From contig OZ220471.1 in the NCBI GenBank assembly GCA_965115835.1, positions 1,095,037 through 1,159,036 on the forward strand: DNA of 64,000 bases, in the 5' to 3' direction. Under the pieces are notes generated by a model. It was not told where the DNA came from. It searched no databases and was given only the letters and a program-made list of their open reading frames with translations. The position numbers were made by a program, and so were the translations under genes. This DNA is from Gammaproteobacteria bacterium (GTDB lineage: Bacteria; Pseudomonadota; Gammaproteobacteria; Steroidobacterales; Foliamicaceae). Position 1 is the first letter of the stretch; each line of letters opens with the position of its first letter. This document shows positions 4,173-40,138 of the stretch, one piece after another.

Positions 4173-4185
4173 TTGAGGATGGCGC

Positions 4186-7066: not shown

Positions 7067-7483
7067 TCAGAACGGGATCTCGTCGTCCGTCCCGTCGCCG
7101 TCGGCCGGCTGGGCCGGGGCGGCAGCCGAGGGCTGGGCGTCGGGCATCGCCGCGCCGTTGCCGTTCGGCTTGTCGAGGAACTGGACCCGGCAGCCCGGCG
7201 CCAGCAGGATCTCGGTCGAGAACCGGTCGGAGTCCTCGCCGTCCTTGCGCCAGCGTCGCGTCTGCAGCTTGCCGTCGACATACACCAGACGTCCCTTTCG
7301 GGCGTACTTGCCGAGCATCTCGACCAGCCCGTCCTGGAAGGTGACGATGCGGTGCCACTCGGTGCGGTCCACCCGCTCGCCGGTCTGCTTGTTGATATAG
7401 GACTCGTCGGTCGCAAGCGACAGATTGGCGACACGCCCCCCGCTTGTGAGGTGGTTGACGGCCCTCCCGTTATTTATGCGCAC
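7067..7483 (-). pseudogene. ssb: single-stranded DNA-binding protein, 3' portion only (5' end replaced at an insertion junction)
   Basis: ...SGGRVANLSLATDESYINKQTGERVDRTEWHRIVTF...GKLQTRRW... ending DDEIPF is a classic SSB OB fold plus acidic tail. Homology to the intact paralogue (28095-28544) stops at 7461. The ORF then runs into AT-rich DNA, with only a GTG at 7483 and no RBS. Confidence 0.75.
7454..7461. repeat. left copy of the 8-bp direct repeat GTTGACGG at the ssb break (candidate att core or TSD)
   Basis: The same 8-mer ends the 5' ssb fragment at 40131-40138. The intact paralogue has GTTGACTG at this position, so the two broken ends share a variant-specific overlap. Confidence 0.6.
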
Positions 7484-7640
7484 AGATGCGCAGAAAGTGC
7501 CAATAAATATGAAATATCAATGATATAAGAGGCTTATTCCTTACCAGATACCGTCAGGAGATAGTGGCGATACGCCCTGTTTTTCTTCTTGGGGTTGATT
7601 TCAGGGTTGATATTTATGGCATCGGCGGTATGATCGCCCC

Positions 7641-8912
7641 ATGATGAAACAGAAATCCGCAAAACGCGTCGCCAAGGTCAAGCTCACGCTCACCAAGCGC
7701 ACCGTCGAGGCATTGGAGCCCACCGGCAAGCCCTGGATCGCATGGGACGACAAGCTCATCGGCTTCGGCTGCCGTGTCCAGCCTTCCGGCACCAAGTCCT
7801 TCGTGGTCAACTACCGCGTCGGCGAAGGCGGGCGCAAGGCGCCCAACAAGCGGGTTGTTGTCGGTCGCTACGGGCGCGCCACTCCCGACCAAGCTCGGCG
7901 CCGTGCCCAAGAACTGCTCGGACGTGCCGCTGGCGGCGGCGACCCCGCCGGGGAGCGTGCCGATGCCCGCGGTCTGCCAACGCTGGGAGAGATTTGCGAC
8001 GACTACATCGAGTCCGGCCACAACCGCGCCGATGTCACGCAGCGATCCTATCGTCGCTATGCCAACCTTTATCTTGGCGACTGGCGCTCCCGGCCTATCG
8101 ATGCCATCACTCGCCGCGATGTCGAGAACCGCTTCCATCTTCTCACTGAGGGTCGCGGCGCCGTCCCGGCCAACCAGTGCCTGTCGTTCCTGCGTTCGGT
8201 TTACCGCCGGCCCTGCGTCGATTACGACGGGTTGCGCAATCCGGTCGAGCAGTGGCTTGCGGGCGGCGGGCGTTACCATCCCCACAGGCGACGCAAGATA
8301 TCGTCGCCGGCCGAGGTGCTTCCCAGATGGCGTGAAGGCATTGACAAGGTGGTGCGCAACCCCGTGCATCGTGACTTGATGCTGTTCGGAATCTACACTG
8401 GCATGCGTCGGGGCGAGATCGTCTCGCTGCGCTGGGAGCGGGTGGACCTTGAAGCGGGGCTGTTTCGAGTCGAGGAGACCAAGACCGGGGCGCCGCTTGA
8501 ACTGCCGATCACGCGCCAGTTGGGCGCTATCCTTGCGCGACGCCGAGCCAACAGCGACGCCATGCCGGCGGACATGCAGGGCTGGGTTTTCCCGTCGCTG
8601 TCCAGCAAATCGGGCCATGTCGAGGAACTCTTTGGCCACTACACCCGGATCGGCAAGGTTGCCGGTGCTCGCTTCTGGTTCCATGGCTTGCGCAACGCCT
8701 TTATCACGGTGGCCGAGCGCGAACTGATGCTGCCGCGTTCGCTGACTAAGCGGCTGGTCAATCACGCCCGGCCGACTGACGTGACCGAAGGCTATGCCGC
8801 CGACTGGACCGTCGAACAGCTTCGCGAACCGGCACAACGTATCGCCGACAAGATTGATGAACTGATGCTGATGGATGCGACGGGAGACTTGGAAGCAGCC
8901 ACGGCCCCGTAA
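7641..8912 (+). CDS. tyrosine-type site-specific integrase (P4-like, DUF4102-type N-terminus)
   Basis: N-terminus LTKRTVEALEPTGKPWIAWDDKLIGFGCRVQPSGTKSFVVNYRV. Catalytic-region motifs TGMRRGEIVSLRW, WFHGLRNAFIT and ...VTEGYA. Confidence 0.9.
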   Translation: MMKQKSAKRVAKVKLTLTKRTVEALEPTGKPWIAWDDKLIGFGCRVQPSGTKSFVVNYRVGEGGRKAPNKRVVVGRYGRATPDQARRRAQELLGRAAGGGDPAGERADARGLPTLGEICDDYIESGHNRADVTQRSYRRYANLYLGDWRSRPIDAITRRDVENRFHLLTEGRGAVPANQCLSFLRSVYRRPCVDYDGLRNPVEQWLAGGGRYHPHRRRKISSPAEVLPRWREGIDKVVRNPVHRDLMLFGIYTGMRRGEIVSLRWERVDLEAGLFRVEETKTGAPLELPITRQLGAILARRRANSDAMPADMQGWVFPSLSSKSGHVEELFGHYTRIGKVAGARFWFHGLRNAFITVAERELMLPRSLTKRLVNHARPTDVTEGYAADWTVEQLREPAQRIADKIDELMLMDATGDLEAATAP

Positions 8913-8976
8913 GCGCTGGCGTGAAAGGGCAAATTGGATTCGCCCGAACAACAGTTCTCTTAAGAGAACCGTTGGC

Positions 8977-9048
8977 TATTGTTCCTCTTCTACCCCCTTC
9001 AATAATTCCAAGGGTAGCCAGTGTCTCAACAATGTTGGCAGAAAGGGT
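8977..9048 (-). mobile_element. solo left-end fragment (about 70 bp) of the IS3-family element seen at 758-2347, inverted
   Basis: The reverse complement of 8977-9048 matches 751-822 almost base for base (CCCTTTCTGCCAACATTGTTGAGACAC(C/T)GGCTACCCTTGGAATTATTGAAGGG...). It abuts a truncated IS3-type orfB. Confidence 0.6.
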
Positions 9049-9592
9049 GTCGATCACGTCGCGCGAAGAGAGCTTGCGCCGAACCCGGATCGCCAGACTC
9101 TCGCGGGTGAACTCGTCGAGCACATTAAGCGTCCAGAAGGCTCGCCCGTCATGAGTCCGGTGATGCATGAAGTCATAGGACCATAGATGATCCGCCCGCT
9201 CAGCTCGCAGCCGGAGGCAGGAGCCGTCGTTCAGCCAGAGCCTACCTCGTTTCGGTTGCTTGCCGGGAACCGTCAGCCCCTCGTGCCGCCACAGACGCTC
9301 GACCCTCTTGGCGTTGACCCGCCAGCCAGCATCGCGAAGCAGAACCGAGATCCTTCAGGTGGCGTAGCTGGCCGCCGTTCATACCGGTATACTCCTTGCA
9401 CCACCTGTAGAAGGTGACCTCGCTGATCCCGAGCCGCCGGGTCGCATCCGCCATCGACAGTCCCTGACCGTGCAATATCTCCGCCTGCCGCAGCAGACGA
9501 ACAATCTCTTCTGGCTTGTAGCGCTTTCTTGCCATCGCCGAGCTTCCTCTTTTCCATAACCTGAGGGTGGGGCCGTTTCAGGGGGAAGATCA
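9049..9592 (-). pseudogene. IS3-family (IS407-like) element, 3'-truncated: intact-looking orfA (9242-9535) plus an orfB fragment
   Basis: OrfA reads MARKRYKPEEIVRLLRQAEILHGQGLSMADATRRLGISEVTFYRWCKEYTGM. The orfB fragment ...FMHHRTHDGRAFWTLNVLDEFTRESLAIRVRRKLSSRDVIDTL breaks off at 9049. The probable IS end is TGATCTTCCCCCTGAAACGG (reverse complement ending at 9592). Confidence 0.7.
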
Positions 9593-10290
9593 ATGTATCT
9601 ATGCGATTTACAGCATTCCCATGGCCCGCAAGGGTGTGAGCGCCATGCAGTTGAGCAAGGAGCTTGGTTGCCAAGACCGCACCGCATGGCATATGCTCCG
9701 CCGTGTGCGCGAGGCTTGCGTCGAAGGAACGTTCACGCTTGATAGGGTCGTCAAAGCAGACGAAACCCATGTCGGCGGGCGGGAGCGCAACAAATACAAC
9801 GACAAGAAACTCAGGGCTGGTCGGGGAACTGTGAGTAAAACTATGGTGATGGAAGCGAGAGAATACGGCAGCAATGTGGTGATCAAGCCTGTCGAGGCCA
9901 CTGATGTGGCAACCCTTATCCCATTTGTCGAGTTGAGCGTGGACGAGGGCGCGACCGTCTACACGGAAGAATTGAGTGCGTATACGAAACTCGCCTATCT
10001 GATCAACCAATACAAGCGTGAAACCGCAACCCATAGTTCCGGGGAGTATGCGCGGTAACGCACACCCCAACTCCATGGGGAGTGTCTGGGTGGTTCTCGA
10101 GCGCTCCATTCACGGCGCATGGCACCATGTGTTGCCCAAGCATCTTGAGCACTACGTCATCGAGGTTACGTTCAGGCTCAATGAGAGCAACTGCGAGGTT
10201 GACACCATCGGCTGCATTGGGGGCAAGCGGCTGTCCTCCGCCGGTCTCATTGCCGACAGTGGCAAGTCCACTCGGGTGCTTCCCGCATGA
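9593..10290 (+). pseudogene. IS1595-family (ISXO2-like) transposase, 5'-truncated and frameshifted
   Basis: ...GVSAMQLSKELGCQDRTAWHMLRRVREA...KADETHVGGRERNK...GRGTVSKTMVM... is followed, in another frame, by ...HPNSMGSVWVVLERSIHGAWHHVLPKHLEHYVIEVTFRLNE. The frame change is near 10040. The remnant ends in an ATGA overlap with the methyltransferase start. Confidence 0.65.
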
Positions 10291-11189
10291 GCCTCAAGGC
10301 CGTTGACCTGTTCAGTGGCTGCGGTGGACTTAGTGCCGGGCTGATTGATGCGGGCATTGACGTGGTTGGTGCCTACGACAATTGGGAGCCAGCCCTTGCC
10401 ACCTATCGCCGAAATATCGACAGCCATGCCGACGCGCTGGACATTGCGGATGTGTTCAAGGCCGCTCGCGCCATCCTGTCGCGGGAGCCTGACTTAATAG
10501 CCGGCGGCCCGCCCTGTCAGGACTTCTCGACGGCTGGCAAGCGCATTGAGGCGGGACGCGCCAACCTGACGCTTGCCTTCGGGCTTGTCATTGAGGCTTG
10601 CGGCGCTCCCTATTTCCTCATGGAGAACGTTCCCCAAGTGCGGCTCAGCGAAACCTACAGCCGAATGCGGGACAGTCTGATTGCAGCTGGTTACCAGATT
10701 GCAGAAACTGTGCTGGACGCTAGTCGTTGCGGTGTTCCGCAGGTGCGAAAGCGGTTCTTCGCCTTTGGCACCAAGGCGGGTGCATCGGTATCCTTACAGT
10801 TCCTTGAGTCGATCAACAGCCGGTTGGCCGATGAGCAACTGACCGTGAAGGCGTACTTTGGGGATGAGATTGACGTGGAACACTACTACCGCCATCCCCG
10901 CAACTACTCCCGCCGTTCGGTGTTTTCCGTGCATGAGCCGTCGCCTACCGTGCGCGGCGTGAACCGCCCGGTGCCAAAGGGCTACAAGGGCAACCATTTG
11001 GATTCGGCGGATCCGCAAACCGTGCGCCCGTTAACCACCGTTGAGCGCAGCCGCGTACAGACTTTCCCCAAGGAATGGGACTGGAACTGCGGCGACCGGA
11101 ACGCAGACGCTGAAACACAGATCGGCAACGCGGTTCCGGTCGCGTTAGCTTCCTTCATCGGGCGCGGCATAGTCGATGCCGTCCAGTAG
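10287..11189 (+). CDS. DNA (cytosine-5)-methyltransferase
   Basis: Motif I DLFSGCGGLSAG, motif IV GGPPCQDFSTAGKR, motif VI FLMENVP, motif VIII GVPQVRKRFF, motif X QIGNAVPV. Confidence 0.9.
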   Translation: MSLKAVDLFSGCGGLSAGLIDAGIDVVGAYDNWEPALATYRRNIDSHADALDIADVFKAARAILSREPDLIAGGPPCQDFSTAGKRIEAGRANLTLAFGLVIEACGAPYFLMENVPQVRLSETYSRMRDSLIAAGYQIAETVLDASRCGVPQVRKRFFAFGTKAGASVSLQFLESINSRLADEQLTVKAYFGDEIDVEHYYRHPRNYSRRSVFSVHEPSPTVRGVNRPVPKGYKGNHLDSADPQTVRPLTTVERSRVQTFPKEWDWNCGDRNADAETQIGNAVPVALASFIGRGIVDAVQ

Positions 11190-12243
11190 CCCCGGCCCGT
11201 CGCTGTACGGAATCTCAGCGGAAAACTCCAGCCGAAGCGGTTCCGGGCTTTGGGGTAAGAATCAGTTCAATTCCACTTTTCCGCTATCGCTTTGCCTGTA
11301 CATGAGAGACACAGGAATCCGCCCGGTAGCGGTGGTGTATGACGGTGCCAAAGTGACAACCAGCGACAGGCGATGGAGCATGGAAAAGGTCATAGGCCAA
11401 TCGCCCTATAACCCCTACTACCACTTTGAGAGCGAGTTTGAGCCTTATCGCGCCCTCTCGCGCAACATCACTGACCACATAGACATCGTGGTTGAGATTG
11501 GCGGGTGTCACGCAAGAGCGCTGGAAGTGAAGCTGACTGTGGTGCCTGACAAGGGAACCGCCGAACTGCCGGAATCCGAATGGGCACCGGAAATGGTGAT
11601 GCGCCCAGTAAGCTCGGCTCACGCCATGATGGGCGTGGCAATGGCGCTGAAACAAGCTGGAGGCAACAAGCGTGAGAAGGCCGTTCAGCTTCTGCGCACG
11701 GCGTACAACGGCATATCGTCATGGGACAACACGCCCGAAGTTCTAAGCCACGCACAAGCGCTGTCACAGGCTCTGACGGGCGTTCTTGGCTTAGCCCGCG
11801 CCATTGAGTCGCCGTTTCTGTTGCAGCCCATATGGCGCACGAAAGGGCAATCCCTGAGCCTCAAGAAGCAGTGCTTTGATGTGTTCGTGTGGTCCGATGT
11901 CGCTGTCATGGCCATTCCCCTGATTGAGCATGGCAAAAATCCCGATGCTCCGATGAGCCGATGGCTGCGCGAGATCACCCGCCATGTGCGCAGTCTGTAC
12001 GACATACTGACTACCGGCGACTACGATTACGCGGGAATCTACAAGGGGATGCCTCACGGCGGGCAAACGGACAAGTCTTTTGCGTTGCCGGGACGGAAAG
12101 CCCTGAGCTATCTGGCCCACGGGCGCCTTCAAAGTCCGGCACTCGGCAAGTCGATTCTGTCGCACTTGGTGGGAAAGGCCGGAGCCAATGAGTTGAAACC
12201 TGAACGGCGGTTTGATGCCGCCGTGAAGGCTCACATGCTATGA
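11176..12243 (+). CDS. probable type II restriction endonuclease partner of the C5-methyltransferase
   Basis: Overlaps the methyltransferase stop by 14 nt. It has a PD-(D/E)xK-like arrangement, ...ITDHIDIVVEIGGCHARALEVKLTVVPD (D...E-V-K). No other family assignment is possible by eye. Confidence 0.55.
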   Translation: MPSSSPGPSLYGISAENSSRSGSGLWGKNQFNSTFPLSLCLYMRDTGIRPVAVVYDGAKVTTSDRRWSMEKVIGQSPYNPYYHFESEFEPYRALSRNITDHIDIVVEIGGCHARALEVKLTVVPDKGTAELPESEWAPEMVMRPVSSAHAMMGVAMALKQAGGNKREKAVQLLRTAYNGISSWDNTPEVLSHAQALSQALTGVLGLARAIESPFLLQPIWRTKGQSLSLKKQCFDVFVWSDVAVMAIPLIEHGKNPDAPMSRWLREITRHVRSLYDILTTGDYDYAGIYKGMPHGGQTDKSFALPGRKALSYLAHGRLQSPALGKSILSHLVGKAGANELKPERRFDAAVKAHML

Positions 12244-12377: not shown

Positions 12378-13939
12378 CTAGGAGCCTGTGCGCCGTAAGA
12401 TGACGTGAGGCTTGGCGAATCGTCCGGAACCTCAACAACTGCGTCTTTGCGCGGGTGCCGTTGGCCTGCGGGCCGTGGAATGACTGTCTGGCGGCTCAAG
12501 AAAGCCCGAATCGCCCCCCGATCCGCCCCAAGGCCGGGCGGAATCCCGGTCATGCGGCTGCCAAACACCCACGCATCCTCTTGATGTTCAACGCCAGGCA
12601 CACCAAGTCCCACTCGCCGCGTACCTTGTGAAGGCCGCGCACACTGAACCGTCGAAATCCCAGCGCCTGTTTGATCCACCCGATCGGCGCCTCCGAAAGC
12701 CACTTGCGCTCGGCGTATTGTGCACGACCCGCCTCCGTCGACAGCTTCGCCGCCATGCGCGCTTTCGCCGGATACTTGTGCGCGTCCACCGCCGCCTTGC
12801 GACGACCCTCCCGACCCAACGCCACATAGCCGTCTACTCCGAGCGCCTCCAGCTTCCCAAGGTCGGATTCGTTGCAATACCCCGCGTCCGCCAGCACCGT
12901 CGCCGGACGCTTCCCATAGATCGCCTTCAATTCATCCAGCGGCTTCACCAACTGCCCCTGGTCGCTGGCGTTCGACGACACCTGCGCCGAAACGATCATC
13001 CGGTTCGCTCCATCCACCGCCAACTGCGCGTTGTAGCACTGCTGATACCCTTGCGCAGAAGTCTTCATGATCCGACTCTCCGGATCCGTGAAATTGTCCT
13101 GCGCCTTCTCCTCGAGTTCCCCATACCCCCGCTTGTAGCACCACCCACCCTTCGGATTGCGCTGTTCACCGGGCCGCCGACCGCGCGCATCGTCCGCCTC
13201 ACGCGCACGCGCCTCAATACGAGCCTTCGCCGCACGAATCGCCGTCAACCGATCTTCCCGACGACGCAACTCCTTCGGCAACTCGTCGCCCCGATACTCT
13301 TCCCCAAAGCGCTCGTCCTCCGACTCATCCACCGTTCGCGCACGATCCAGCAACAAACCAATCTCCGACTCCAAACGACGCTCTTCCTCCCGCATCCGAC
13401 CGTAACTCATCGCCTTGCGCTTGGATGCGTTCGGACGAACCTTGGTTCCGTCTATCGACAGCTTGCCAAAGTTCGCCACGCCCAACTCGCACGCCAGACG
13501 AACCATCTCCACAAACAGCCTCTTGAAGTCCGACAAATGACGACGACGAAACTCGCAGATCGTCCGGTGGTTCGGAAAGTTCCCCGCCGCCAATACCCGA
13601 AACGCCACATCTTCCTCCAGCTTGCGCGCCAAACCGCGCGAGGAAAACACACCCGTCGCATACCCGTAGATCAGCACCTTCAGCATCATCCGCGGTTCAT
13701 ACGGCGACTTGCGACGACCGTCGCCTTCATACGGCGCGTAAAACACACCCAAGTCCAGATCGTCCACCAAGTCGCTGACATGGTGCGCCAAGTGACCCTC
13801 CGGCAGCCAATCCTTCATATCCGGCGGAAGCAACAAACCCTGATTCGGGCAATACGGGCGAAACGTCGTCGGCATCTCAAAACCTCCACTTCCCTATATG
13901 GGAATTATCGCATTGCGTTCCTACGGCGCAGGCTCCTAG
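12378..13939 (-). mobile_element. IS1182-family insertion sequence
   Basis: Terminal inverted repeats: CTAGGAGCCTGTGCGCCGTAAGA (12378-) versus the reverse complement of the right end, CTAGGAGCCTGCGCCGTAGGAA (ending 13939). They enclose a single 441-aa transposase. Confidence 0.75.
12550..13875 (-). CDS. IS1182-family transposase
   Basis: N-terminus LLPPDMKDWLPEGHLAHHVSDLVDDLDL...YEPRMMLKVLIYGYATGVFSSRGLARKLEEDVAFRVL (DUF772-like). The DDE region reads ...VLADAGYCNE.... Confidence 0.85.
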   Translation of the reverse strand: MPTTFRPYCPNQGLLLPPDMKDWLPEGHLAHHVSDLVDDLDLGVFYAPYEGDGRRKSPYEPRMMLKVLIYGYATGVFSSRGLARKLEEDVAFRVLAAGNFPNHRTICEFRRRHLSDFKRLFVEMVRLACELGVANFGKLSIDGTKVRPNASKRKAMSYGRMREEERRLESEIGLLLDRARTVDESEDERFGEEYRGDELPKELRRREDRLTAIRAAKARIEARAREADDARGRRPGEQRNPKGGWCYKRGYGELEEKAQDNFTDPESRIMKTSAQGYQQCYNAQLAVDGANRMIVSAQVSSNASDQGQLVKPLDELKAIYGKRPATVLADAGYCNESDLGKLEALGVDGYVALGREGRRKAAVDAHKYPAKARMAAKLSTEAGRAQYAERKWLSEAPIGWIKQALGFRRFSVRGLHKVRGEWDLVCLALNIKRMRGCLAAA

Positions 13940-14441: not shown

Positions 14442-14708
14442 ATGAGTGCGGAAAGCAAGAAGCCGATCACGGAAAACGATGACAGCACTCTGGCGAGCAG
14501 GGAGAATGTCAGAGAGTCCGCCGCGTTGCAGGCCAACTTCGAGCAACTGATCGCGCATCTGCCCAAGGACAGCCTCGCTGCAAAACTCGTGACCGCCTAC
14601 GCGACACCAAGCGAAACTACGCCCGCCGATGCTGTCGCGAAGGTCGCCGCAACCCGTCTTGATGAACTGAAGCAAAGCCATGACGACACCGAAGATCAAA
14701 AAGATTGA
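14442..14708 (+). CDS. small acidic hypothetical protein (88 aa) overlapping the ATPase start
   Basis: MSAESKKPITENDDSTLASRENVRESAALQANFEQLIAHL...HDDTEDQKD. It overlaps the downstream ATPase gene by 29 nt and has a weak RBS. Coding status is not proven. Confidence 0.4.
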   Translation: MSAESKKPITENDDSTLASRENVRESAALQANFEQLIAHLPKDSLAAKLVTAYATPSETTPADAVAKVAATRLDELKQSHDDTEDQKD

Positions 14709-17715: not shown

Positions 17716-17899
17716 CTCGACCGGCAAAATTGCTTATTCAGCTCAGTGACCGAACCGAGGTGTAGCAGGGTCAGGGTGTTGTCTGGACAGGGCGACATGG
17801 CTCTTGAAAAGCTCAGGCCTGAACACCACATCGTGTTACTACGGCAGGAAATACTTCAGCGTAGTAGCACCAAGCAAACTCGAAAAGGAGGTGATAGCG

Positions 17900-28800: not shown

Positions 28801-29027
28801 GCGGGTCTCCTTCGGTGGTCGCGCCCGGGACGGGGGAGCCTTTCTCCCTCCACTCTCCCGGACGCTTGCCCGGCGCTTCGCGAAACTCCGACTCTTGAGA
28901 ACAGCAACAGGAATGCGACGGCGCGGTAATCGGCACAGACGGCAGGTCAATCCGGGACGGCGCCCCCCGCAGGCGTGCCGAGCAGACGCCAAGGCTGAAA
29001 GCCCCCTGCAACCGCTGTCCGCCGGCG

Positions 29028-30047: not shown

Positions 30048-30134
30048 GAGGGCATCTCCAGTCTCGGTGGAAGTCGGGACGGCAGGACACCCTGCCGGCA
30101 AAGGACCGGCGGGGCGTTCCAGGGAGCTTGCCCT

Positions 30135-30461
30135 TCAGCCCTTCTGGCGACGCTCCACAAAGATGCCCATGGCCCGCCAGCCCCACAGCTGCACCCCGCA
30201 ATTGCGCTGCTTGATCCCCGTTGCGATGATGATCTCGTCGCGGGCCGGGCGCATCTTCTCGACCTCTTTCAGCGAGACAATGACCAAGCGCGGCTTGCGC
30301 CGTCCTTTCGGTCTGGCGCCGTCGGTCTCGACGGGAACGATGTCGCCGTCCGCTCGGGACAGGTAGCGCTGAATGACGTAGCGGTCGTCGTCGAGTCCGC
30401 TGCCTGTGAAGTGGGTGAGAAAGGTGCGCGCGTCGCCGCGCGGTGCAAGTGCCGCCTGCAT
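30135..30461 (-). CDS. conserved hypothetical protein (108 aa), first gene of module B
   Basis: MQAALAPRGDARTFLTHFTGSGLDDDRYVIQRYLSRADGDIVPVE... with GAGGAG upstream. 95% identical paralogue at 41791-42117. Confidence 0.6.
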   Translation of the reverse strand: MQAALAPRGDARTFLTHFTGSGLDDDRYVIQRYLSRADGDIVPVETDGARPKGRRKPRLVIVSLKEVEKMRPARDEIIIATGIKQRNCGVQLWGWRAMGIFVERRQKG

Positions 30462-30785
30462 CGTGCCGTGCTCCTCAAGGTCAGGTGAAAGGGAACGGCG
30501 GCAGCGACTTCCTCGGGAGCGCGACCGCCGTCCCCCTTCCGGCCAGACTCCGCCTCTCGATGGCGCAAGGCGACGCAGCGGCGCAGGCAAATGACAGCCC
30601 CTGCGACGGCTATGCCTATACCGACTGGCGTGGCGGATGCCCGGCACCAACCATGTTTGTTGGAATGGCTGCTGCCACTACCGTCTTGTGCCCCTCGGGA
30701 AAGCGCCCAAAGCGCTTCTGTGTGATTACTGGCGAGGCCAGCAATTCCCGCTAACGATGCAGAGTCGTTCGTTCAGGGCCGGATG

Positions 30786-32527: not shown

Positions 32528-32602
32528 GTTGTGACCATTCAGGCGTTGGACCGGAACTGATTTTCGAGCATTGTCACGCTTGGCAGGAATTGCTGTGGCG
32601 AG

Positions 32603-34502
32603 CAGGACCATTCCAAAGTCGTGGCGAGTCCAGCTCTATGCGCCGAGGTGCAGCGAGATGGTCCGTGCGTGGTCCGCTGGCGCGTCGGATGCCGTGGTTT
32701 CAGCGGCCGAAGCCGCGTCGGGTGATCTGCCGCATTGCGTCGCCCTGTCGGGCGGCGAAGTGGCGGTGGACTTGCGGCATGTAGTCGAATCGTTCGTCGA
32801 GTCGCACGATCAAGATGGCCGCGTTTACGAGGCAAGCGAGGTTGCGGCGGAGACGCTTTGCCTTGACGCGGTTGCGGTCCTCGTCGTAACTGACGTCTCG
32901 CACATAGTGCAGCCGGTTCTCGATCTCCCAATGGCCCCGGTTGAGGCGAAGCAATTCACTCGCCGATGCCTGTTCCGGCCCCAGCGAGGTGACGCCGTAC
33001 ACGGTTTCGGTCGAGGTGCGCCGGGTGCGCAGGACATGCCGTTCGCGCTCAATGCGGATGGCTTGGCGGCGGTGAGGCATCGCAACGCAATCGGGCGAGA
33101 CGAGATCGAGAGGGATCACCCGACAGCGGCGGGTCTCGATGCGTTCATGCCCCTTCTCGACCGTCTTGTGCCCGGTGGCCGCGACTTGCGCGGCCTCCCA
33201 GTCGAGGCCCGAGGTCAGGCCGTCAAGCAGTTCCTGCTGGTTGCCCTTGACCGTCATCAGGTAGAACCCGCCGCGCTCGGCGATCAATTGCGCCGTCTTG
33301 CGCTGCGTGTGCAGGGCGTCGAGCGTCACCACCCGATCCTGGATGTCGAGACGCTGCAGCAGCGCGCGCGCACCCAGAATCTCGCCGCCAGCCCCGTCGC
33401 AGGCCTCCTGACCGCAGACCAGACCGCTGCCGTGCTCGACCACCGCCACCAGCACGCGCTCGCTGTCCTTGCCCTGGATCCACTCTGCCGCAGTCACCTT
33501 GCCGTCAACCGCAACCGCGCCGTGCGGAGACCGGTTCTGCTCAATGAAGCGGCTCAGCGCTTCGTCGAGCACTTCCGGAGCAACCTGCGACAGCACCCGG
33601 TGAAACGAGGTTCGCGACGGCGCGACATAGCGCTTGCGGCTCGGACTCCAGAACGCCCGTACCGCCGCCAGTTGCGCCTGGGTCAGACGAGCAGCGAACT
33701 CCCCGATCGTCACCACCCCGCGCACCCCTGCCAGCTTCGCCGCCAGAGCAATCGAAAAGATCGTCGCCAACGAGTGGCGGATGCCCCGCGCCTTGCGATA
33801 CTCCGGCACTTGGCGGAAAAACTCATACAGGCTCCTGAGACGCTCGACCTCCGGCAGTCGCGGCGGCGCCGCGACCAGCCCCCACTCCTCGTCGTCCTCC
33901 GGCTGGCGCAAGGCCGTGCATGCCGACGAGCGCAACTCCCGTATCAGCACCCTCTTCGGCTCGCCGTGCTCGCGCCAGCCACCCCCCGGAACCCGCGCAT
34001 AGCCGCGCGTCCTGCCAATCTCCCGCCAGTTGGCGGCACGGTAGCAGGTTCCGCTGAACCGGGCCGGATCGACGAAGGTCTCCGCCAGCAACACCGGATG
34101 GCCGGTCTGCGCCTTCATGTCCTGCGACAGCCGACGCAGCGACAAGCCGAGAACCCGCGAGGCGAGATTGGGCGCGCGAGCGCCCGGCAGCACCAGAAAC
34201 CGCGTGTTGTCCGCGACCAGCCGCAGCCGACGAAACTGCTGCTCGCGAGTCCAGCCGATCAGACGATCACGCACTCCGACCTTGAACGAACCCGCATGCC
34301 AGCCCAGCAGCGCCAGCCAGGTCCCGTCCGGCAACTCCGCGACCTGACGGACACCGCCACCAACCAGACCACGAAACCCAAGATAGTGGTGACGGGACAT
34401 CAGCACATCCCAGCGAGCGGACTCGGCTCGATCCGTCACCGGCCGCACCGACACCTCCGCCAGATCGAACCTGGACCAAGCAACTGACATCTCCATCGCC
34501 GA
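32603..34502 (-). mobile_element. ISAs1-like element copy 1 (lacks its 5' terminal repeat)
   Basis: The right-end sequence CAGGACCATTCCAAAGTCGTGGCGAG lies at 32603. Only 7 bp remain upstream of the transposase ATG before another IS end begins. It lacks a roughly 110-bp 3'-UTR segment present in the other copies. Confidence 0.8.
32700..34496 (-). CDS. transposase: DUF4338-like N-terminal domain fused to an ISAs1-family DDE domain (598 aa)
   Basis: N-terminus ...MSRHHYLGFRGLVGGG...LGWHAGSFKVGVRDRLIGWT...NNTRFLVLPG...NLASRVLG...LAETFVDPARFSGTCYRAANW (DUF4338-like, from memory). C-terminus ...VAVDGKV...VTLDALHTQRKTAQ...HWEIENRLHYVRDVSYDEDRNRV (ISAs1/H-repeat type). Confidence 0.85.
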   Translation of the reverse strand: MEMSVAWSRFDLAEVSVRPVTDRAESARWDVLMSRHHYLGFRGLVGGGVRQVAELPDGTWLALLGWHAGSFKVGVRDRLIGWTREQQFRRLRLVADNTRFLVLPGARAPNLASRVLGLSLRRLSQDMKAQTGHPVLLAETFVDPARFSGTCYRAANWREIGRTRGYARVPGGGWREHGEPKRVLIRELRSSACTALRQPEDDEEWGLVAAPPRLPEVERLRSLYEFFRQVPEYRKARGIRHSLATIFSIALAAKLAGVRGVVTIGEFAARLTQAQLAAVRAFWSPSRKRYVAPSRTSFHRVLSQVAPEVLDEALSRFIEQNRSPHGAVAVDGKVTAAEWIQGKDSERVLVAVVEHGSGLVCGQEACDGAGGEILGARALLQRLDIQDRVVTLDALHTQRKTAQLIAERGGFYLMTVKGNQQELLDGLTSGLDWEAAQVAATGHKTVEKGHERIETRRCRVIPLDLVSPDCVAMPHRRQAIRIERERHVLRTRRTSTETVYGVTSLGPEQASASELLRLNRGHWEIENRLHYVRDVSYDEDRNRVKAKRLRRNLACLVNAAILIVRLDERFDYMPQVHRHFAARQGDAMRQITRRGFGR

Positions 34503-34708
34503 CAGGACCATTCCAAAGTCGTGGCGAGTCCAAGTTCGTGCGCCGAGGTGCAGCGAGATGGTCCGTGCGTGGTCCGCTGGCGCGTCGGGTAGTCGGGGAT
34601 TTTGGCAGGCCGGCGCTTTCCGGGCCGTCGGTTCCAGGCTTTTTGGCGGCCCGCGTCGTCGAGTGACGCAGTTCGGGCAGAGTGGGTGCGTCGTATGCCG
34701 TCGTTTCA
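34503..34708 (-). mobile_element. inverted ISAs1-like 3'-end fragment (stop codon plus 3' UTR plus terminal repeat)
   Basis: The reverse complement of 34503-34708 matches 37988-38193 of copy 3. It is joined head-on at 34708 to the middle of another transposase copy. Confidence 0.65.
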
Positions 34709-36087
34709 GTCGCGGCGCCGCCGCGACTGCCGGAGGTCGAGCGTCTCAGGAGCCTGTATGAGTTTCTCCGCCAAGTGCCGGAATATCGCAAGGCGCGGGG
34801 TATCCGCCACTCGTTGGCGACGATCTTTTCGATTGCTCTGGCGGCGAAGCTGGCGGGGGTGCGCGGGGTGGTGACGATCGGGGAGTTCGCTGCACATCTG
34901 ACCCAGGCGCAACTGGCGGCGGTGCGGGCGTTTTGGAGTCCCAGCCGCAAGCGCTATGTCGCGCCGTCGCGAACCTCGTTTTACCGGGTGCTGTCGCAGG
35001 TTGCTCCGGAAGTGCTCGACGAAGCGCTGAGCCGCTTCATCGAGCAGAACCGGTCTCCGCACGGCGCGGTTGCGGTTGACGGCAAGGTGACTGCGGCGGA
35101 GTGGATCCAGGGCAAGGACAGCGAGCGCGTGCTGGTGGCGGCGGTCGAGCACGGCAGCGGTCTGGTCTGCGGTCAGGAGGCCTGCGACGGGGCCGGCGGC
35201 GAGATTCTGGGTGCGCGCGCGCTGCTGCAGCGTCTCGACATCCAGGATCGGGTGGTAACGCTCGACGCCCTGCACACGCAGCGCAAGACCGCGCAATTGA
35301 TCGCCGAGCGCGGCGGGTTCTACCTGATGACGGTCAAGGGCAACCAGCAGGAACTGCTCGACGGCCTGGCCTCGGGCCTCGACTGGGAGGCCGCGCAAGT
35401 CGCGGCCACCGAGCACGAGACGGTCGAGAAGGGGCATGGACGCATCGAGACCCGCCGCTGTCGGGTGATCCCTCTCGATCTCGTCTCGCCCGATTGCGTT
35501 GCGATGCCCCACCGCCGCCAAGCCATCCGCATTGAGCGCGAACGGCATGTCCTGCGCACCCGGCGCACCTCGACCGAAACCGTGTACGGCGTCACCTCGC
35601 TGGGGCCGGAACAGGCCTCGGCGAGTGAATTGCTTCGCCTCAACCGAGGCCATTGGGAGATCGAGAACCGGCTGCACTATGTGCGTGATGTCAGCTACGA
35701 CGAAGACCGCAACCGCGTCAAGGCAAAGCGTCTGCGCCGCAACCTCGCCTGTCTCGCAAACGCGGCCATCTCGATCGTGCGACTCGACGAACGATTCGAC
35801 TACATGTCCCAGGCTCACCGCCACTTCGCCGCCCGACAGGGCGACGCCATGCGACAAGTCACCCGACGCGGCTTCGGCCGCTGAAACGACGGCATCCGAC
35901 GCCTCCACTCCGCCCGAACTGCGTCACCCGACGACGCGGGCCGCCAAAAAGCCCAGAACCGACGGCCCGGAAAGCGCCGGCCTGCCGAAATCCCCGACTA
36001 CCCGACGCGCCAGCGGACCACATACGGACCATCTCGCTGCGCCTCAGCGCACGAACTTGGACTCACCGCGACTTTGGAATGGTCCTG
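34708..36087 (+). pseudogene. ISAs1-like element copy 2, 5'-truncated (transposase codons about 205-598 plus 3' end)
   Basis: Begins at ...VAAPPRLPEVERLRSLYEF. It is collinear with copy 3 from 36812 onward and ends with ...GACTTTGGAATGGTCCTG at 36087. Confidence 0.75.
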
Positions 36088-36098
36088 GTGGAACCGGT

Positions 36099-38193
36099 CA
36101 GGGCTGTTTCAAAGTCGTGGTCAGATTATTGGCCTGACAGTTTGTTTGCGGTGTACTGGACATTGAGCGGGTATTCGGTCATGATGGTCGGCGATGGAGA
36201 TGTCAGTTGCCATGTCCGGGTTCGATCTGGCGGAGGTGTCGGTGCGGCCGGTGACGGATCGAGCCGAGTCCGCTCGCTGGGATGTACTGATGTCCCGTCA
36301 CCACTATCTCGGCTTCCGCGGTCTGGTCGGTGGCGGTGTCCGTCAGGTGGCGGAGTTGCCGGACGGGACTTGGCTGGCGCTGCTGGGCTGGCATGCGGGT
36401 TCATTCAAGGTCGGAGTGCGTGATCGTCTGATCGGCTGGACTCGCGAGCAGCAGTTTCGTCGTCTGCGTCTGGTTGCGAACAACACGCGGTTTCTGGTGC
36501 TGCCGGGCGCTCGGATGCCGAATCTCGCCTCGCGGGTTCTCGGCTTGTCGCTGCGTCGGCTGTCGCAGGACATGAAGGCGCAGACCGGCCACCCGGTATT
36601 GCTGGCGGAGACCTTTGTCGATCCGGCCCGGTTCAGCGGGACCTGCTACCGTGCCGCCAACTGGCGGGAGATTGGCAGGACGCGCGGCTATGCGCGGGTT
36701 CCGGGGGGCGGCTGGCGCGAGCACGGCGAGCCGAAGAGGGTGTTGATACGGGAGTTGCGTTCGTCGGCATGTGCGGCCTTGCGTCAGCCGCAGGACGATC
36801 AGGAATGGGGGCTGGTCGCGGCGCCGCCGCGACTGCCGGAGGTCGAGCGTCTCAGGAGCCTGTATGAGTTTCTCCGCCAAGTGCCGGAGTATCGCAAGGC
36901 GCGGGGCATCCGCCACTCGTTGGCGACGATCTTTTCGATTGCTCTGGCGGCGAAGCTGGCGGGGGTGCGCGGGGTGGTGACGATCGGGGAGTTCGCTGCT
37001 CGTCTGACCCAGGCGCAACTGGCGGCGGTGCGGGCGTTCTGGAGTCCGAGCCGCAAGCGCTATGTCGCGCCGTCGCGAACCTCGTTTCACCGAGTGCTGT
37101 CGCAGGTTGCTCCGGAAGTGCTCGACGAAGCGCTGAGCCGCTTCATTGAGCAGAACCGGTCTCCGCACGGCGCGGTTGCGGTTGACGGCAAGGTGACTGT
37201 GGCCGAGTGGATACAGGGCAAGGACAGCGAGCGCGTGCTGGTGGCGGCGGTCGAGCACGGCAGCGGTCTGGTCTGCGGTCAAGAGGCCTGCGACGGGGCC
37301 GGCGGCGAGATTCTGGGTGCGCGCGCGCTGCTGCAGCGTCTCGACATCCGGGATCGGGTGGTGACGCTCGACGCCCTGCACACGCAGCGCAAGACGGCGC
37401 AGTTGATCGCCGAGCGCGGCGGGTTCTACCTGATGACGGTCAAGGGCAACCAGCAGGAACTGCTTGACGGTCTGGCCTCCGGCCTCGACTGGGAGGCCGC
37501 GCAAGTCGCGGCCACCGAGCACGAGACGGTCGAGAAGGGGCATGGACGCATCGAAACCCGCCGCTGTCGGGTGATCCCTCTCGATCTCGTCTCGCCCGAT
37601 TGCGTTGCGATGCCTCACCGCCGCCAAGCCATCCGCATTGAGCGCGAGCGGCATGTCCTGCGCACCCGGCGCACCTCGACCGAAACCGTGTACGGCGTCA
37701 CCTCGCTGGGGCCGGAACAGGCATCGGCGAGTGAATTGCTTCGCCTCAACCGAGGCCATTGGGAGATCGAGAACCGGCTGCACTATGTGCGTGATGTCAG
37801 CTACGACGAAGACCGCAACCGCGTCAAGGCAAAGCGTCTGCGCCGCAACCTCGCCTGCCTCGCAAACGCCGCCATCTCGATCGTGCGACTTGACGAACGA
37901 TTCGACTACATGCCCCAGGCTCACCGCCACTTCGCCGCCCGACAGGGCGACGCCATGCGACAAGTCACACGACGCGGCTTCCGCCGCTGAAACCACGGCA
38001 TCCGACGCACCCACTCTGCCCGAACGGCGTCACGCGACGACGCGGGCCGCCAAAAAGCCCGGAACCGACGGCCCGGAAAGCGCCGGCCTGCCGAAATCCC
38101 CGACTACCCGACGCGCCAGCGGATCACGCACGGACCATCTCGCTGCACCTCGGCGCACGAACTTGGACTCACCACGACTTTGGAATGGTCCTG
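36099..38193 (+). mobile_element. ISAs1-like element copy 3, complete, with a 10-bp target-site duplication
   Basis: The left inverted repeat (IRL) is CAGGGCTGTTTCAAAGTCGTGGTCAG (36099-). The reverse complement of the right inverted repeat (IRR) is CAGGACCATTCCAAAGTCGTGGTGAG (ending 38193). It is flanked by TGGAACCGGT at 36089-36098 and 38194-38203. Confidence 0.85.
36194..37990 (+). CDS. DUF4338-like/ISAs1-family transposase (598 aa)
   Basis: Full-length paralogue of 32700-34496, with the same motifs. Confidence 0.9.
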   Translation: MEMSVAMSGFDLAEVSVRPVTDRAESARWDVLMSRHHYLGFRGLVGGGVRQVAELPDGTWLALLGWHAGSFKVGVRDRLIGWTREQQFRRLRLVANNTRFLVLPGARMPNLASRVLGLSLRRLSQDMKAQTGHPVLLAETFVDPARFSGTCYRAANWREIGRTRGYARVPGGGWREHGEPKRVLIRELRSSACAALRQPQDDQEWGLVAAPPRLPEVERLRSLYEFLRQVPEYRKARGIRHSLATIFSIALAAKLAGVRGVVTIGEFAARLTQAQLAAVRAFWSPSRKRYVAPSRTSFHRVLSQVAPEVLDEALSRFIEQNRSPHGAVAVDGKVTVAEWIQGKDSERVLVAAVEHGSGLVCGQEACDGAGGEILGARALLQRLDIRDRVVTLDALHTQRKTAQLIAERGGFYLMTVKGNQQELLDGLASGLDWEAAQVAATEHETVEKGHGRIETRRCRVIPLDLVSPDCVAMPHRRQAIRIERERHVLRTRRTSTETVYGVTSLGPEQASASELLRLNRGHWEIENRLHYVRDVSYDEDRNRVKAKRLRRNLACLANAAISIVRLDERFDYMPQAHRHFAARQGDAMRQVTRRGFRR

Positions 38194-38211
38194 TGGAACC
38201 GGTACAACCGG

Positions 38212-38240
38212 TTGACAAGTGTCCAAGAATTTGCTATGGG
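38212..38240 (+). promoter_or_regulatory. sigma70-like promoter candidate for the small-protein cassette
   Basis: TTGACA (38212-38217), a 17-nt spacer, then TATGGG (38235-38240). It lies about 39 nt upstream of the ATG at 38279. Confidence 0.4.
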
Positions 38241-38278
38241 TAGAAAATAACACCTTAGATTGGGAGAAGGGGGAGAAG

Positions 38279-38701
38279 ATGAAAAAGTCAAACAAGTGGC
38301 TCCGAGGGGGAGCTGTGGGGCTGCTTTCTGTGGTCTTTCTTTCGGCATCTCCAAAAGCTTTTGCCGATATATGGCGATATCCAGATAGCTATGGTCATTG
38401 TCCAGCAGGGTACTCCCATATTCCTCAAACCGAATTATTCCTTGCGGGGCGTTGGGATGCACCTTCTGTGGGTATGTGCCTTGATAGACAGTATGTTCTT
38501 ACCCGGAACGGTGGGGTGCAGTTGGCGAGTACGCACGGTTGCCATATGATTGCAGATGGCATGGGAGGCATATCCGCAATGTGGGGGCTCGGTGCCGGCA
38601 TAACGGCAATTATTCCTGGTGCGCAAGTGCATGCTGCGGCTTTCGCCTTGATTGGTGCAGGTTTCAGCTTGGCATCGTATTTTGTGCGCCAAAGCTGCTG
38701 A
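38279..38701 (+). CDS. secreted or membrane-anchored Cys-containing protein with a Gly-zipper-like hydrophobic C-terminus (140 aa)
   Basis: RBS GGGGGAG. Signal peptide MKKSNKWLRGGAVGLLSVVFLSASPKAFA|D. C-terminus GMGGISAMWGLGAGITAIIPGAQVHAAAFALIGAGFSLASYF. Low-GC cassette. Confidence 0.55.
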   Translation: MKKSNKWLRGGAVGLLSVVFLSASPKAFADIWRYPDSYGHCPAGYSHIPQTELFLAGRWDAPSVGMCLDRQYVLTRNGGVQLASTHGCHMIADGMGGISAMWGLGAGITAIIPGAQVHAAAFALIGAGFSLASYFVRQSC

Positions 38702-38717
38702 TGAAAAGGAGCACAAG

Positions 38718-38993
38718 ATGAGCTTGAACATTATCCGCAATAACAAGAACAAACTGCTGGGCGGCGTGGCTATTGTGCTTTCGCTTTTTTCCGTGGGCAT
38801 GGCTGCGTACGTCCATATTCTTGGTAAAGGCGATGAATACATGCTCGGGATAATAATATTTTATGCACTGCTGTATATAACGGCATTGTGTATCGGCTTG
38901 GCTATTCGATCCGTTATTTTGAAGCTGAAAAGGGATTTGAAGCAGGATTTGAAGCAGGATTTGATGCGGGATTTACAACAGGAAGCTTCATGA
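38718..38993 (+). CDS. small two-TM protein with a charged repeat tail (91 aa)
   Basis: RBS AAAGGAG. Two hydrophobic helices, then KLKRDLKQDLKQDLMRDLQQEAS. Confidence 0.5.
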   Translation: MSLNIIRNNKNKLLGGVAIVLSLFSVGMAAYVHILGKGDEYMLGIIIFYALLYITALCIGLAIRSVILKLKRDLKQDLKQDLMRDLQQEAS

Positions 38994-39229
38994 ATTTCAC
39001 TTGGCTGGGCCGGGGTTTGGCGATCATTTGGTGGGGTGCAATAGGATACTTGGTCGGTGTCTTCATTCTTGGGATTCTTGGCTACTTTTTCTTGCAGGGG
39101 GAGGTGCATCAGGAGGCCCTGATTAAGTGGGGGAGGCTTATAACTGCTATCCCTTACCTTGTTGCCCTTTCTTTTGCATGGTTCTTTGCTGGCCGTCGAT
39201 ACTGGAAGCAGTCAAAAAGACAACCGTGA
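38990..39229 (+). CDS. small two-TM protein with a basic C-terminus (79 aa)
   Basis: The ATG overlaps the previous stop (ATGA). Sequence GLAIIWWGAIGYLVGVFILGILGYFFL ... LITAIPYLVALSFAWFFAGRRYWKQSKRQP. Confidence 0.5.
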   Translation: MNFTWLGRGLAIIWWGAIGYLVGVFILGILGYFFLQGEVHQEALIKWGRLITAIPYLVALSFAWFFAGRRYWKQSKRQP

Positions 39230-39655
39230 ATCGCCATAACCTTAGGATGACGGAAAACGTCAAGAGACCAGTCGGGACGCCTGCCCGCACAATGCGTCTG
39301 GGATCGTAGATGTCCTTTCCGTTCATCAATAACCGGAAGATGATGGCGACAGGCGGCAACCGCAATTGTGGCAGCTTCGCCATCGCCTAGTGAGGGGCTT
39401 CCCGACACGAGGGTTTCGTAAACCACATGCTCGCGTTCATTCAGGGTAGTGAGTTGAACTTTGCCCGACGCGGCCAAATCTTGGATAAACTGATACTCAC
39501 CGTTGTTCCTACCCGTCTCATGCTCAAGCTCCACTGCTACAATTTCCGTCACCAGCATGAAGGTTTATCAGGACACTCGTGTCGATGATCAGCGGGCTCG
39601 AGTCATCAGCTAGGAAGCTTGAGTAAGTATCCGTCTCGCTATCCTTGAGCACGGT
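39154..39655 (-). pseudogene. PIN-domain (VapC-like) gene, frameshifted
   Basis: One frame upstream of 39558 reads ...PLIIDTSVLINLHAG (PIN N-terminal Asp). After a frame change the ORF continues ...GDGEAATIAVAACRHHLPVIDERKG. The C-terminal third looks degenerate. Confidence 0.45.
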
Positions 39656-40130
39656 TAGAGTTGATCTTCTCGGCTACAGATTATGGACGATCCGAATCCG
39701 TTTCAAGAGATTGGCACCTATCGACTGCTTCTGACGAGCTGGTTGAGCAAACGAGGCTGAGAATCGCTCATTGCTTTGTTGATGCTGGTTATGCATAAGC
39801 GCGTTTGACCTGCCCCCGACGATGGATCCAGTTTCAATGTTGGTGCATTGACGATTTCTCTGCCATGCTGGGCGAGATGAGTCAGTGCCGCGAGCAGCGA
39901 GTCATCACCGTGTTGATCGTTATCGGGACGATTGCGACAGACACGGCCCAACGGCGACAAAAGTCGCCATGAGGCGCCGCACAGCGCGGCAATTGGCGTC
40001 GAACGCGGTGTTGCAATGGTGTTGACTGTCGGGACAGACGCGGGCAGCAGCATTTGCTTCATCTCCGCAAATAATTGATATAAAGGTTCTTTTCCCGCCT
40101 GAAAAAGTTGCGTATTCCCTGCACGGAAGC

Positions 40131-40138
40131 GTTGACGG
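40131..40138. repeat. right copy of the 8-bp direct repeat GTTGACGG
   Basis: See 7454-7461. Confidence 0.6.

Follow-up and report, generated by a model that had tools for sequence, protein, structure and literature searches.

A 32.7-kb mobilizable element with a P4-type tyrosine integrase, very probably inserted into the ssb gene of a related element

Introduction

A stretch of 64,000 nucleotides from contig OZ220471.1 (assembly GCA_965115835.1, Gammaproteobacteria bacterium; the whole stretch is called the window below) holds an ssb gene in two pieces that lie 32.7 kb apart, with a tyrosine integrase gene just inside one of the two junctions. The locus raises the question of what separated the two pieces, and whether ssb is a regular target of such integrases or was struck by accident. 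The comparisons described here make it very probable that positions 7462-40130 are an integrative mobilizable element (IME), inserted by its own P4-type integrase into the accessory ssb of a close relative. An earlier interpretation of the same DNA from its letters only, without database searches, is referred to as the sequence-only reading. L numbers denote loci and contigs and P numbers proteins with which the window was compared.

Results

The two ssb pieces derive from one gene

Translation of the minus strand from 40193 to 40131 gives MAFGLNRVELIGRLGADVTVN, the first 21 codons of ssb, which are preceded by an AGGAGA-type ribosome-binding site and now run on into a dead-end peptide of 44 amino acids (aa). 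The 3' piece lies in a minus-strand open reading frame (ORF) of 138 aa at 7067-7483, for which the gene caller uses an in-frame GTG start at 7483; its translation begins VRINNGRAVNHLTSGGRVANLSLATDESY and ends DDEIPF before the stop, and internally it reads ..AVNHLTSGGRVANLSLATDESY...IPF. At their broken ends both pieces have the 8-mer GTTGACGG, at 7454-7461 and 40131-40138. Outside it the neighbouring bases are unlike at either edge, which makes the repeat exactly 8 bp long, and the insert amounts to 32,669 bp (7462-40130) plus one core copy. With 12 occurrences of GTTGACGG in the window where 2.6 are expected, the 8-mer taken alone is weak evidence. An intact ssb paralogue inside the insert reads MSFGLNRAEVIGRLGADVTVNNLVSGGRVANL... 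and has GTTGACTG at 28482-28489 in place of the core; its DNA is 77% identical to that of the split gene.

In a protein search, the rejoined SSB of 149 aa was 99% identical over its full length to P0121, whose 90% cluster has six members. P0121, P0242 and P0243 are intact SSBs of 149 aa, each 99% identical to the rejoined protein, and P0241, P0244 and P0245 are truncated forms of 138 aa that start MRIN(N/D)GRAVNH. P0241 matches the truncated ORF of the window exactly. The records place each of P0121, P0241 and P0245 on one contig, 2,756,080 bp long, from which we infer that the genome of the window holds one intact and two disrupted copies of this ssb. The first residues of the truncated proteins (MRINNGRAVNH or MRINDGRAVNH) derive from the element end and not from SSB. 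For annotation this is a warning, as 138-aa 'SSB' proteins that begin MRINNGRAVNH are insertion scars.

Two contigs, L082 (found through P0243) and L083 (through P0242), carry the intact ssb in the gene order of the window flanks: small ORF, Zn-ribbon protein, ssb, DUF7146/Toprim, 76-aa ORF, YAcAr. When positions 3001-7461 of the window were joined to 40139-43000, L082 gave a single colinear match of 6,179 bp at 94.4% identity that spans the join, and L083 was 97.3% identical across it. Both contain the join sequence GACGTGACCGTCAACCACCTC exactly as reconstructed. Therefore, the two pieces are one gene, interrupted by an insert of 32,669 bp. A distant DNA search of the plasmid collection with the rejoined site returned no empty site, just ssb matches of 69-82% (Roseomonas, Pseudomonas).

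These results agree with most of what the sequence-only reading had said of the gene, namely that its first 21 codons stand with their ribosome-binding site at 40193-40131, that both pieces share an 8-mer for which the paralogue at 28095-28544 has a variant, and that the pieces come from one gene; the uninterrupted ssb that it had proposed to look for exists in L082 and L083. It had recognised the 3' piece ending at 7461 as well, and had counted 126 codons in it; the count is corrected here to 128 codons and the stop beyond the 21 shared ones.

Integrase and element ends

Inside the left junction, 179 bp (7462-7640) with a GC content of 44.7%, compared with about 62-65% elsewhere, lead up to the integrase gene at 7641-8912, as the sequence-only reading had described (about 180 AT-rich bp and a tyrosine integrase). 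The protein scores 58.2 bits against PF13356 (cut-off 27) and 53 bits against PF00589 (cut-off 27.1). All catalytic residues are kept (R256, K281, H348, R351, H375 and Y385), and the catalytic motifs read TGMRRGE, ETKTG, FHGLRN, VNHARP and TEGYAADW. Its architecture is that of P4-type tyrosine integrases: an arm-binding domain at the N-terminus is followed by the catalytic domain, which contains the tetrad and the tyrosine. Identity to any integrase of the plasmid collection is at most 33%; the NCBIfam models gave no match at E <= 0.001, and a sequence search of solved structures gave none at E <= 0.01.

A direct pair, GGGTTGA-N5-GGGTTGA, stands at 7592-7610 directly before the integrase start codon, and a similar one, GTGTTGC-N4-GTGTTGA, at 40008-40025, approximately 100 bp inside the right end. 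The common pattern GKGTTGM-N4-5-GKGTTGM occurs just twice in the 64 kb on either strand, at these two places (7592/7604 and 40008/40019) and in the same orientation, and a GKGTTGM pair is found at most 140 bp upstream of the integrase gene in 75 of 83 related loci. By this distribution the pairs are the best candidates for arm-type sites. The sequence-only reading had offered another repeat, TGATATAA, for that role. Its two copies are present (TGATATAAGAG at 7521 and TGATATAAAGG at 40076), and the GKGTTGM pair fits the role better: TGATATAA lies in AT-rich stretches, and its right copy overlaps, on the opposite strand, an IHF-consensus match in the right arm (TATCAATTATTTG, 40068-40080, minus strand; one of three in the window). 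The reconstructed attP core is flanked by ACGGAAGC and CCCTCCCGT. As the reverse complement of CCCTCCCGT is ACGGGAGGG, the two form an imperfect inverted repeat, which would fit core-type sites.

Insertion sites of related integrases

More than 1,200 homologues of the integrase were found; the top 120 clusters are 67-98% identical to it and come almost all from ENA assemblies. A scan of species-representative genomes yielded 436 integrase loci, and the 80 fetched are nearly all from metagenome-assembled genomes, of Alphaproteobacteria, Binatia, Thermodesulfobacteriota, Gammaproteobacteria, Vicinamibacteria and Poriferihabitaceae, often with many copies per genome. Junction classes were derived from the 330 bp upstream of each integrase and from the mapped positions of ssb and the module proteins.

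Within the clade of integrases 89-98% identical to that of the window, the junction GGTTGACGG next to CCCTCC[CT]GT is present in the window, L081, L001, L084 and L085. Of these five readable junctions, the window included, four fall on codons 19-21 of ssb, and they represent at least three different ssb genes. L081 (integrase 98% identical) has the same host flank at 98.3% identity and other cargo, a 1,003-aa SMC_N protein and a DUF4135 protein. L001 (89%) has the same junction in an ssb just 69% identical, and L084 (90%) has it in a decayed and frameshifted ssb; the element ends of L001 and L084 are near-identical, and the ssb genes that they adjoin are different. In L085 (89%), the same junction is within an EamA transporter gene, at CAGGTTGACGG. 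This last case shows that recognition is of the 9-bp sequence rather than of the gene as such, ssb being its usual carrier. In L143 (87%) the upstream region is rearranged and no junction is readable.

Other branches of the family strike the same gene elsewhere. Integrases of a clade 78-83% identical have the junction (G/A)TCGCCA(A/G)CCTCC followed by C at ssb codons 29-31 (R-V-A-N-L), in L002, L004, L009, L035 and L077, with the 5' ssb piece on the same strand as the integrase gene; in the same clade, L003 and L144 have the same kind of sequence hit in genes for YAcAr and for an alcohol dehydrogenase, respectively. Further ssb positions are codons 2-3 (L057, L116), about codon 71 (L072) and, approximately, codon 9 (L044). 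Thus, the ssb-targeting specificity that the sequence-only reading had called unusual is real and repeated.

Targets of another kind also occur in the family. Integrases 63-67% identical lie at the 3' halves of tRNA genes, and the 64-kb window contains no tRNA target. In L005 and L040 the target is apparently a relaxase gene, and a relaxase is encoded 3-4 kb downstream of the integrase in L006, L033 and L040. In Binatia and Thermodesulfobacteriota the target is the REP-like palindrome GGGCGGGTTTCAAACCCGCC, with at least nine copies in one genome. At these loci (L010-L034, L054 and L055; integrases 74-79% identical) GGGCGGGTTTCAAACCCGCC adjoins TGTC upstream of the integrase gene, at about 5750-5850, and the at least nine near-identical copies in the Binatia genome CBDBFB01 look as if an integrase element had spread in a burst through copies of a dispersed repeat.

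Conservation of the site and a second invader of ssb

A metagenome scan with a pattern of GTTGACGG plus degenerate ssb 5' codons found 54 sites in 52 contigs, all 54 in continuous ssb frames at codons 19-21. Eleven of the 52 contigs show a different interruption. In these (L091, 1-4502; L092, L096, L099, L100, L112, L116, L125, L127, L129 and L135), the plasmid/ICE-type ssb breaks off behind codon ~42-44, and a conserved end follows, TC[TG][CT]GTGTT[TC]CATGATGCACCTTGTT, which belongs to a serine-recombinase cassette with the conserved end ..GTGTTTCATGATGCACCTTGTT. L091 contains the whole insert of ~4.15 kb, with a DUF5372 ORF, a 318-aa ORF and a large serine recombinase of 695 aa, and, 250-330 bp past the junction, a complete replacement ssb that reads in the same direction. 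In L116 (122-1667), an ssb fragment that comprises codons 3-44 adjoins the cassette end at one edge and, at codon 2-3, a tyrosine integrase 56% identical to that of the window at the other; this ssb has therefore been struck twice, by unrelated recombinases.

The host element

The genes on both sides of the split ssb belong to the element that was invaded. Its YAcAr and DUF7146/Toprim genes are each 98% identical to their counterparts beside the intact ssb of L082, and on the other flank (40683-42239) the similarity to L082 ends at about 42239. Compared with the copies inside the insert, the host-side proteins are 78.5% (YAcAr), 93.6% (Zn-ribbon) and 94.8% (small protein) identical, and the DNA at 28492-30568 is 90.8% identical to that at 40141-42224. 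In L082 the host backbone runs on to an RHH gene and a relaxase gene that are 86% and 96% identical to those of the insert, so the element around the target ssb bears a relaxase (MobF) as well as genes for YAcAr, Toprim, Zn-ribbon and RHH proteins. By these shared genes and the L082 identities, element and host element are members of one family of relaxase-bearing elements. The claim of the sequence-only reading that the insertion hit the ssb of a related element while bringing its own intact copy is thereby strengthened.

It was considered whether the element's own ssb might be a recombinant at the core, as 28492-30568 and 40141-42224 are 91% identical and the 3' side 75%. This was rejected: sliding identity is 70-80% throughout ssb and 58-67% upstream, and exceeds 90% only from about 28700.

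Some further features of the host element and the surrounding DNA were noted. A 146-bp tandem repeat (4.9 copies, 90% matches, 3393-4099) lies between the YAcAr and RHH genes of the host element and is also found in L082; it is possibly iteron-like or oriT-related, and the 235-aa ORF that overlaps it (2938-3645) is probably spurious. In L082, a group II intron-type reverse transcriptase (1,249 aa, RVT_1; 8185-11934) is encoded between the RHH gene and the relaxase gene. A 45-bp tandem repeat (15.6 copies, 94% matches, 52342-53043) inside a 298-aa ORF of 75% GC (52231-53127) is either a repetitive protein or a non-coding array.

Gene content of the insert

The features of the locus are collected in Table 1. 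The insert has its own recombinase, att sites that share their core with the empty target, and a relaxase, which scores 284.5 bits against the MobF equivalog NF041492 of NCBIfam (cut-off 100). No type IV secretion system (T4SS) or coupling protein (VirB4, VirD4 or TraG-type domains) was found among the ORFs scanned in 7462-40130 or in the rest of the window, with small unannotated ORFs remaining. Thus, the composition is that of an IME. The sequence-only reading had arrived at a mobilizable integrative element with an integrase, a MobF relaxase, an RHH protein and oriT; the integrase, the relaxase and the missing transfer machinery stand, the RHH assignment is weak, and no oriT was located. 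The candidate RHH protein is 86% identical to the one beside the relaxase in L082.

Table 1. Features of the split ssb locus (positions in the window; RHH, ribbon-helix-helix; IS, insertion sequence)
Feature	Position	Strand	Basis or remark
YAcAr, host element, downstream of split ssb	4186-5820	-	98% identical to L082 gene beside intact ssb
DUF7146/Toprim primase-like protein, host element, downstream of split ssb	5817-6863	-	98% identical to L082 gene
Displaced 3' part of host-element ssb, codons 22-149 and shared core	7067-7461	-	Equals P0241; colinear with intact ssb of L082 and L083
Core copy GTTGACGG, attL	7454-7461	+	Same GGTTGACGG to CCCTCC junction in L001, L081, L084, L085
Integrase-proximal arm (P' arm), C'-like CCCTCCCGT at 7462-7470 and AT-rich stretch	7462-7640	+	
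Tyrosine integrase, 423 aa, Arm-DNA-bind_3 (DUF4102) and Phage_integrase	7641-8912	+	Pfam domains, catalytic residues
IS remnants: HTH_Tnp_1 ORF 9242-9535 (-), IS1595-type fragment 9567-10058 (+)	9242-10058		Domain scan
Type II restriction-modification cargo: C5 cytosine methylase 10287-11189, HindVP-type endonuclease 11176-12243	10287-12243	+	
IS transposase (DDE_Tnp_1 with DUF772)	12550-13875	-	
SMC/AAA ATPase, LmuB-like, candidate defence cargo	14680-17205	+	LmuB, E=2.4e-16
Diverged second copy of relaxase upstream region and first ~109 codons	17303-17725	+	~80-98% identity in blocks
MobF (TrwC-type) relaxase-helicase	19151-22438	+	NCBIfam NF041492
PLD-family nuclease-like protein	22435-23838	+	
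Small protein with weakly NikA-like RHH match, candidate accessory factor of the relaxase	24821-25207	-	E=0.0023, under Pfam cut-off
Element's own YAcAr/SLOG protein	26488-27630	-	
125-aa ORF	27686-28063		
Element's own intact ssb	28095-28544	-	73% protein identity to split ssb
Element's Zn-ribbon-rich protein	29028-30101	-	94-95% identical to host-side copy
Element's 171-aa protein	30135-30650	-	94-95% identical to host-side copy
IS1380-type copy with 25-bp inverted repeats	30786-32527		
Three related ISAs1-type copies	32603-38193		
Lower-GC tail, small membrane ORFs and truncated PIN/DUF3368 gene	about 38200-40130		
Truncated PIN/DUF3368-type gene	39154-39558	-	Full-length relatives ~215 aa
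Distal arm (P arm), C-like ACGGAAGC at 40123-40130	40008-40130	+	
Core copy GTTGACGG, attR	40131-40138	+	Sequence inspection
5' 21 codons of host-element ssb	40131-40193	-	Translation of 40193-40131
Zn-ribbon-rich protein, host element, upstream of split ssb	40683-41816	-	
129-aa protein, host element, upstream of split ssb	41791-42180	-	

The insert has several traces of earlier events. Positions 17303-17725 match 19037-19477 (repeat families D4, D5, D7, D10 and D16) and look like the remnant of another element's relaxase. The 3' end of the relaxase gene recurs past the PLD gene (22292-22445 and 23877-24030, 86%), and these relaxase-region repeats indicate either that two or more related elements have been combined into a mosaic or that the PLD gene was inserted. 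A DruA-like (Druantia) domain (Pfam PF14236, E about 1e-17) stands at the N-terminus of two of the three ISAs1-type transposases, and ORFs with the DruA domain also adjoin transposases in L081 and other loci. The IS1380-type copy splits a sequence of ~125 bp (30739-30787 and 32526-32600), which is uninterrupted at 60200-60324 and is possibly a small dispersed repeat. The ORF at the right end was tried as a marker of the element and rejected, since it is a common truncated PIN/DUF3368 gene.

Discussion

Alternative explanations of the split

A composite transposon, or a block moved by IS copies, for which a DDE transposase would have duplicated 8 bp of the target to give GTTGACGG, would account for a short repeat of an 8-mer that is common in the window, and the five or more IS copies in the insert do belong to families whose duplications are of 8 bp or similar length. 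Yet these copies are internal and none is at an end, the window repeat analysis found no terminal inverted repeats pairing 7462 with 40130, and the ends carry the motifs of the integrase family. A duplication would also vary from case to case, whereas the same 9 bp stand beside the same conserved end in five readable loci, one of them in an unrelated gene. A transposase origin is accordingly very improbable. An even smaller chance is left to an assembly artefact or homologous recombination between two ssb paralogues. The source is a metagenome-assembled genome, and two ssb copies of 77% DNA identity lie 12-21 kb apart, but on the element side of the junctions the sequence is not that of ssb, separate assemblies of other samples (L001, L081, L084) break at the identical point, the flanks rejoin colinearly with the empty sites, and truncated and intact forms coexist as separately called proteins on the same contigs.

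The integrase could also have made the insertion at an accidental secondary site, while the true target of its clade would be another, such as the tRNA genes or REP-like repeats hit in sister clades. Related integrases do use tRNA 3' halves and REP-like palindromes, the same core is hit in the transporter gene of L085, and just five junctions of the clade are readable. Against such an accident, four of these five are in ssb, in at least three different genes; the 54 of 54 metagenome matches show the site to be widely conserved in this ssb family; sister clades strike ssb at codons 2-3, about 9, about 31 and about 71; and an unrelated serine-recombinase cassette targets ssb as well. This explanation is therefore considered unlikely, though less so than the two above.

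Insertion by the element's own integrase into a relative's ssb is favoured over all three, and several observations weigh against it or against parts of it. None of the 54 metagenome sites is an attR of the 89-98% clade, and the attL/attP and attR patterns gave chance matches only in two viral-contig scans, so that conservation of the right end would have to be argued from the arm motif and the empty sites. No oriT was located in the element, and no excisionase was recognised beside the integrase gene, where the window has IS debris and L085 an HTH_17 gene. The RHH match is under the Pfam threshold. Because of the ~5 IS copies, the diverged duplicate of the relaxase 5' fragment and the lack of a recognised excisionase, the element may be a decaying mosaic that is no longer mobile. 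No T4SS of the host element was seen in the scanned ORFs, and for this reason the host element may be just mobilizable itself. The suggested 'immunity' conferred by GTTGACTG (see below) would depend on one synonymous base. Excision, a repaired site from this copy, and transfer are, on this explanation, predicted.

Proposed course of insertion

In the proposed mechanism, the 8-bp overlap GTTGACGG of attP would recombine with the identical sequence at ssb codons 19-21 (T-V-N). The integrase would bind the GKGTTGM pairs as arm-type sites and ACGGAAGC/CCCTCCCGT as core-type sites, and strand exchange would take place across the overlap. The element might then travel through a mating pore supplied by a conjugative element in the same cell, or be carried in cis within its host element. 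The 5' coding region of ssb is highly conserved among conjugative elements across phyla, which would make the site widely present; the gene would be favoured also as one that is dispensable to the cell and that the invader itself supplies. Tyrosine recombinases need identity in the overlap for exchange, and because of this the single G-to-T difference in the core of the element's own ssb (GTTGACTG) would block strand exchange and could protect the element from insertion into itself.

The accessory ssb is a landing pad, repeatedly used, for the relatives of this element in sponge-type microbial genomes, much as tRNA genes are. A broader interpretation can be offered only tentatively, and we hold it to be somewhat less probable than its negation. 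The ssb of conjugative and mobilizable elements in sponge-type symbionts would be a landing pad that evolved convergently, with several subclades of one tyrosine-integrase family having moved their cores among codons 2-3, about 9, 19-21, about 31 and about 71, all in the first ~70 codons of the gene and in varied orientation, and an unrelated large-serine-recombinase cassette using codon ~42. The window element and the L091 cassette, the two invaders that were seen whole, each bring a replacement ssb. Elements would thus come to be nested like Russian dolls across phyla, selection would act on the target gene and not on a particular sequence, and core variants would give immunity.

Several consequences follow from the findings. 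Parasitism of mobile elements through their conserved genes is extended from Gram-positive pathogens to uncultured marine symbionts, and from serine to tyrosine recombinases. The ssb gene is a new target that resembles tRNA genes from the standpoint of an integrase, being conserved, widespread and safe to hit. Its use helps to explain how large mosaics rich in defence genes are assembled and travel between phyla in sponge microbiomes. The defined 8-bp core and its natural one-base variant are directly testable in a recombination assay.

Comparison with known systems

P4-type integrases (DUF4102/Arm-DNA-bind_3) of islands and of integrative and conjugative elements (ICEs) target tRNA genes, as do P4 Int, IntB13 of ICEclc and the integrases of pathogenicity islands. 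The integrase of the window resembles them in domain architecture, catalytic residues, a gene that abuts one att site, a short identical core and AT-rich arms with repeated motifs, and distant members of its family are found at tRNA 3' halves. Unlike in tRNA targeting, the site here is within a gene for a protein, and insertion leaves that gene unrestored. Another precedent is the accretion of cis-mobilizable elements (CIMEs) and ICEs in streptococci, in which related integrative elements are arranged in tandem or nested at a shared att site; a nested Tn1806 in ICESa2603 is reportedly such a case. As in accretion, related elements pile up at a site defined by the recombinase, and the composites share modules at >90% identity. 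The difference is that the resident element has the att site within one of its genes instead of at its end, which leads to nesting and not to a tandem array.

The closest parallel is provided by Firmicutes IMEs that use serine recombinases to integrate into conserved ICE genes (a Maff2-like gene, an SNF2 helicase gene and two traG sites; ICEs of the Tn5252 superfamily) (PMC5704250, PMC5357655, PMC7563843). Others integrate into the oriT of ICESt3/Tn916-type ICEs, and hitch-hiking in cis has been proposed (PMC5704250, PMC5357655, PMC7563843). Like these, the element of the window is small and mobilizable, encodes a recombinase and a relaxase, and disrupts a conserved gene of another transferable element, which produces nesting, and in both systems different IMEs may use more than one site in one target gene. 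In contrast to the Maff2, SNF2 and traG IMEs with their serine recombinases, the integrase here is a P4-type tyrosine recombinase with candidate arm-type repeats. The relaxase is MobF, and the element family lives in uncultured organisms, mostly sponge-type Proteobacteria and other phyla, whereas the Firmicutes IMEs have other relaxase types and Gram-positive hosts. The target is ssb, and the invader in the window carries a replacement copy of the target gene. In a literature search, no paper found named ssb as an integration target, and none described this element family in sponge symbionts. Thus, the logic is that of known IMEs, and what is new is the recombinase class, the target gene, the host lineages and the replacement copy of the target that is carried along. 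Nested insertion is unsurprising in kind; the repeated use of ssb, at multiple positions and by multiple recombinases across phyla, is unexpected.

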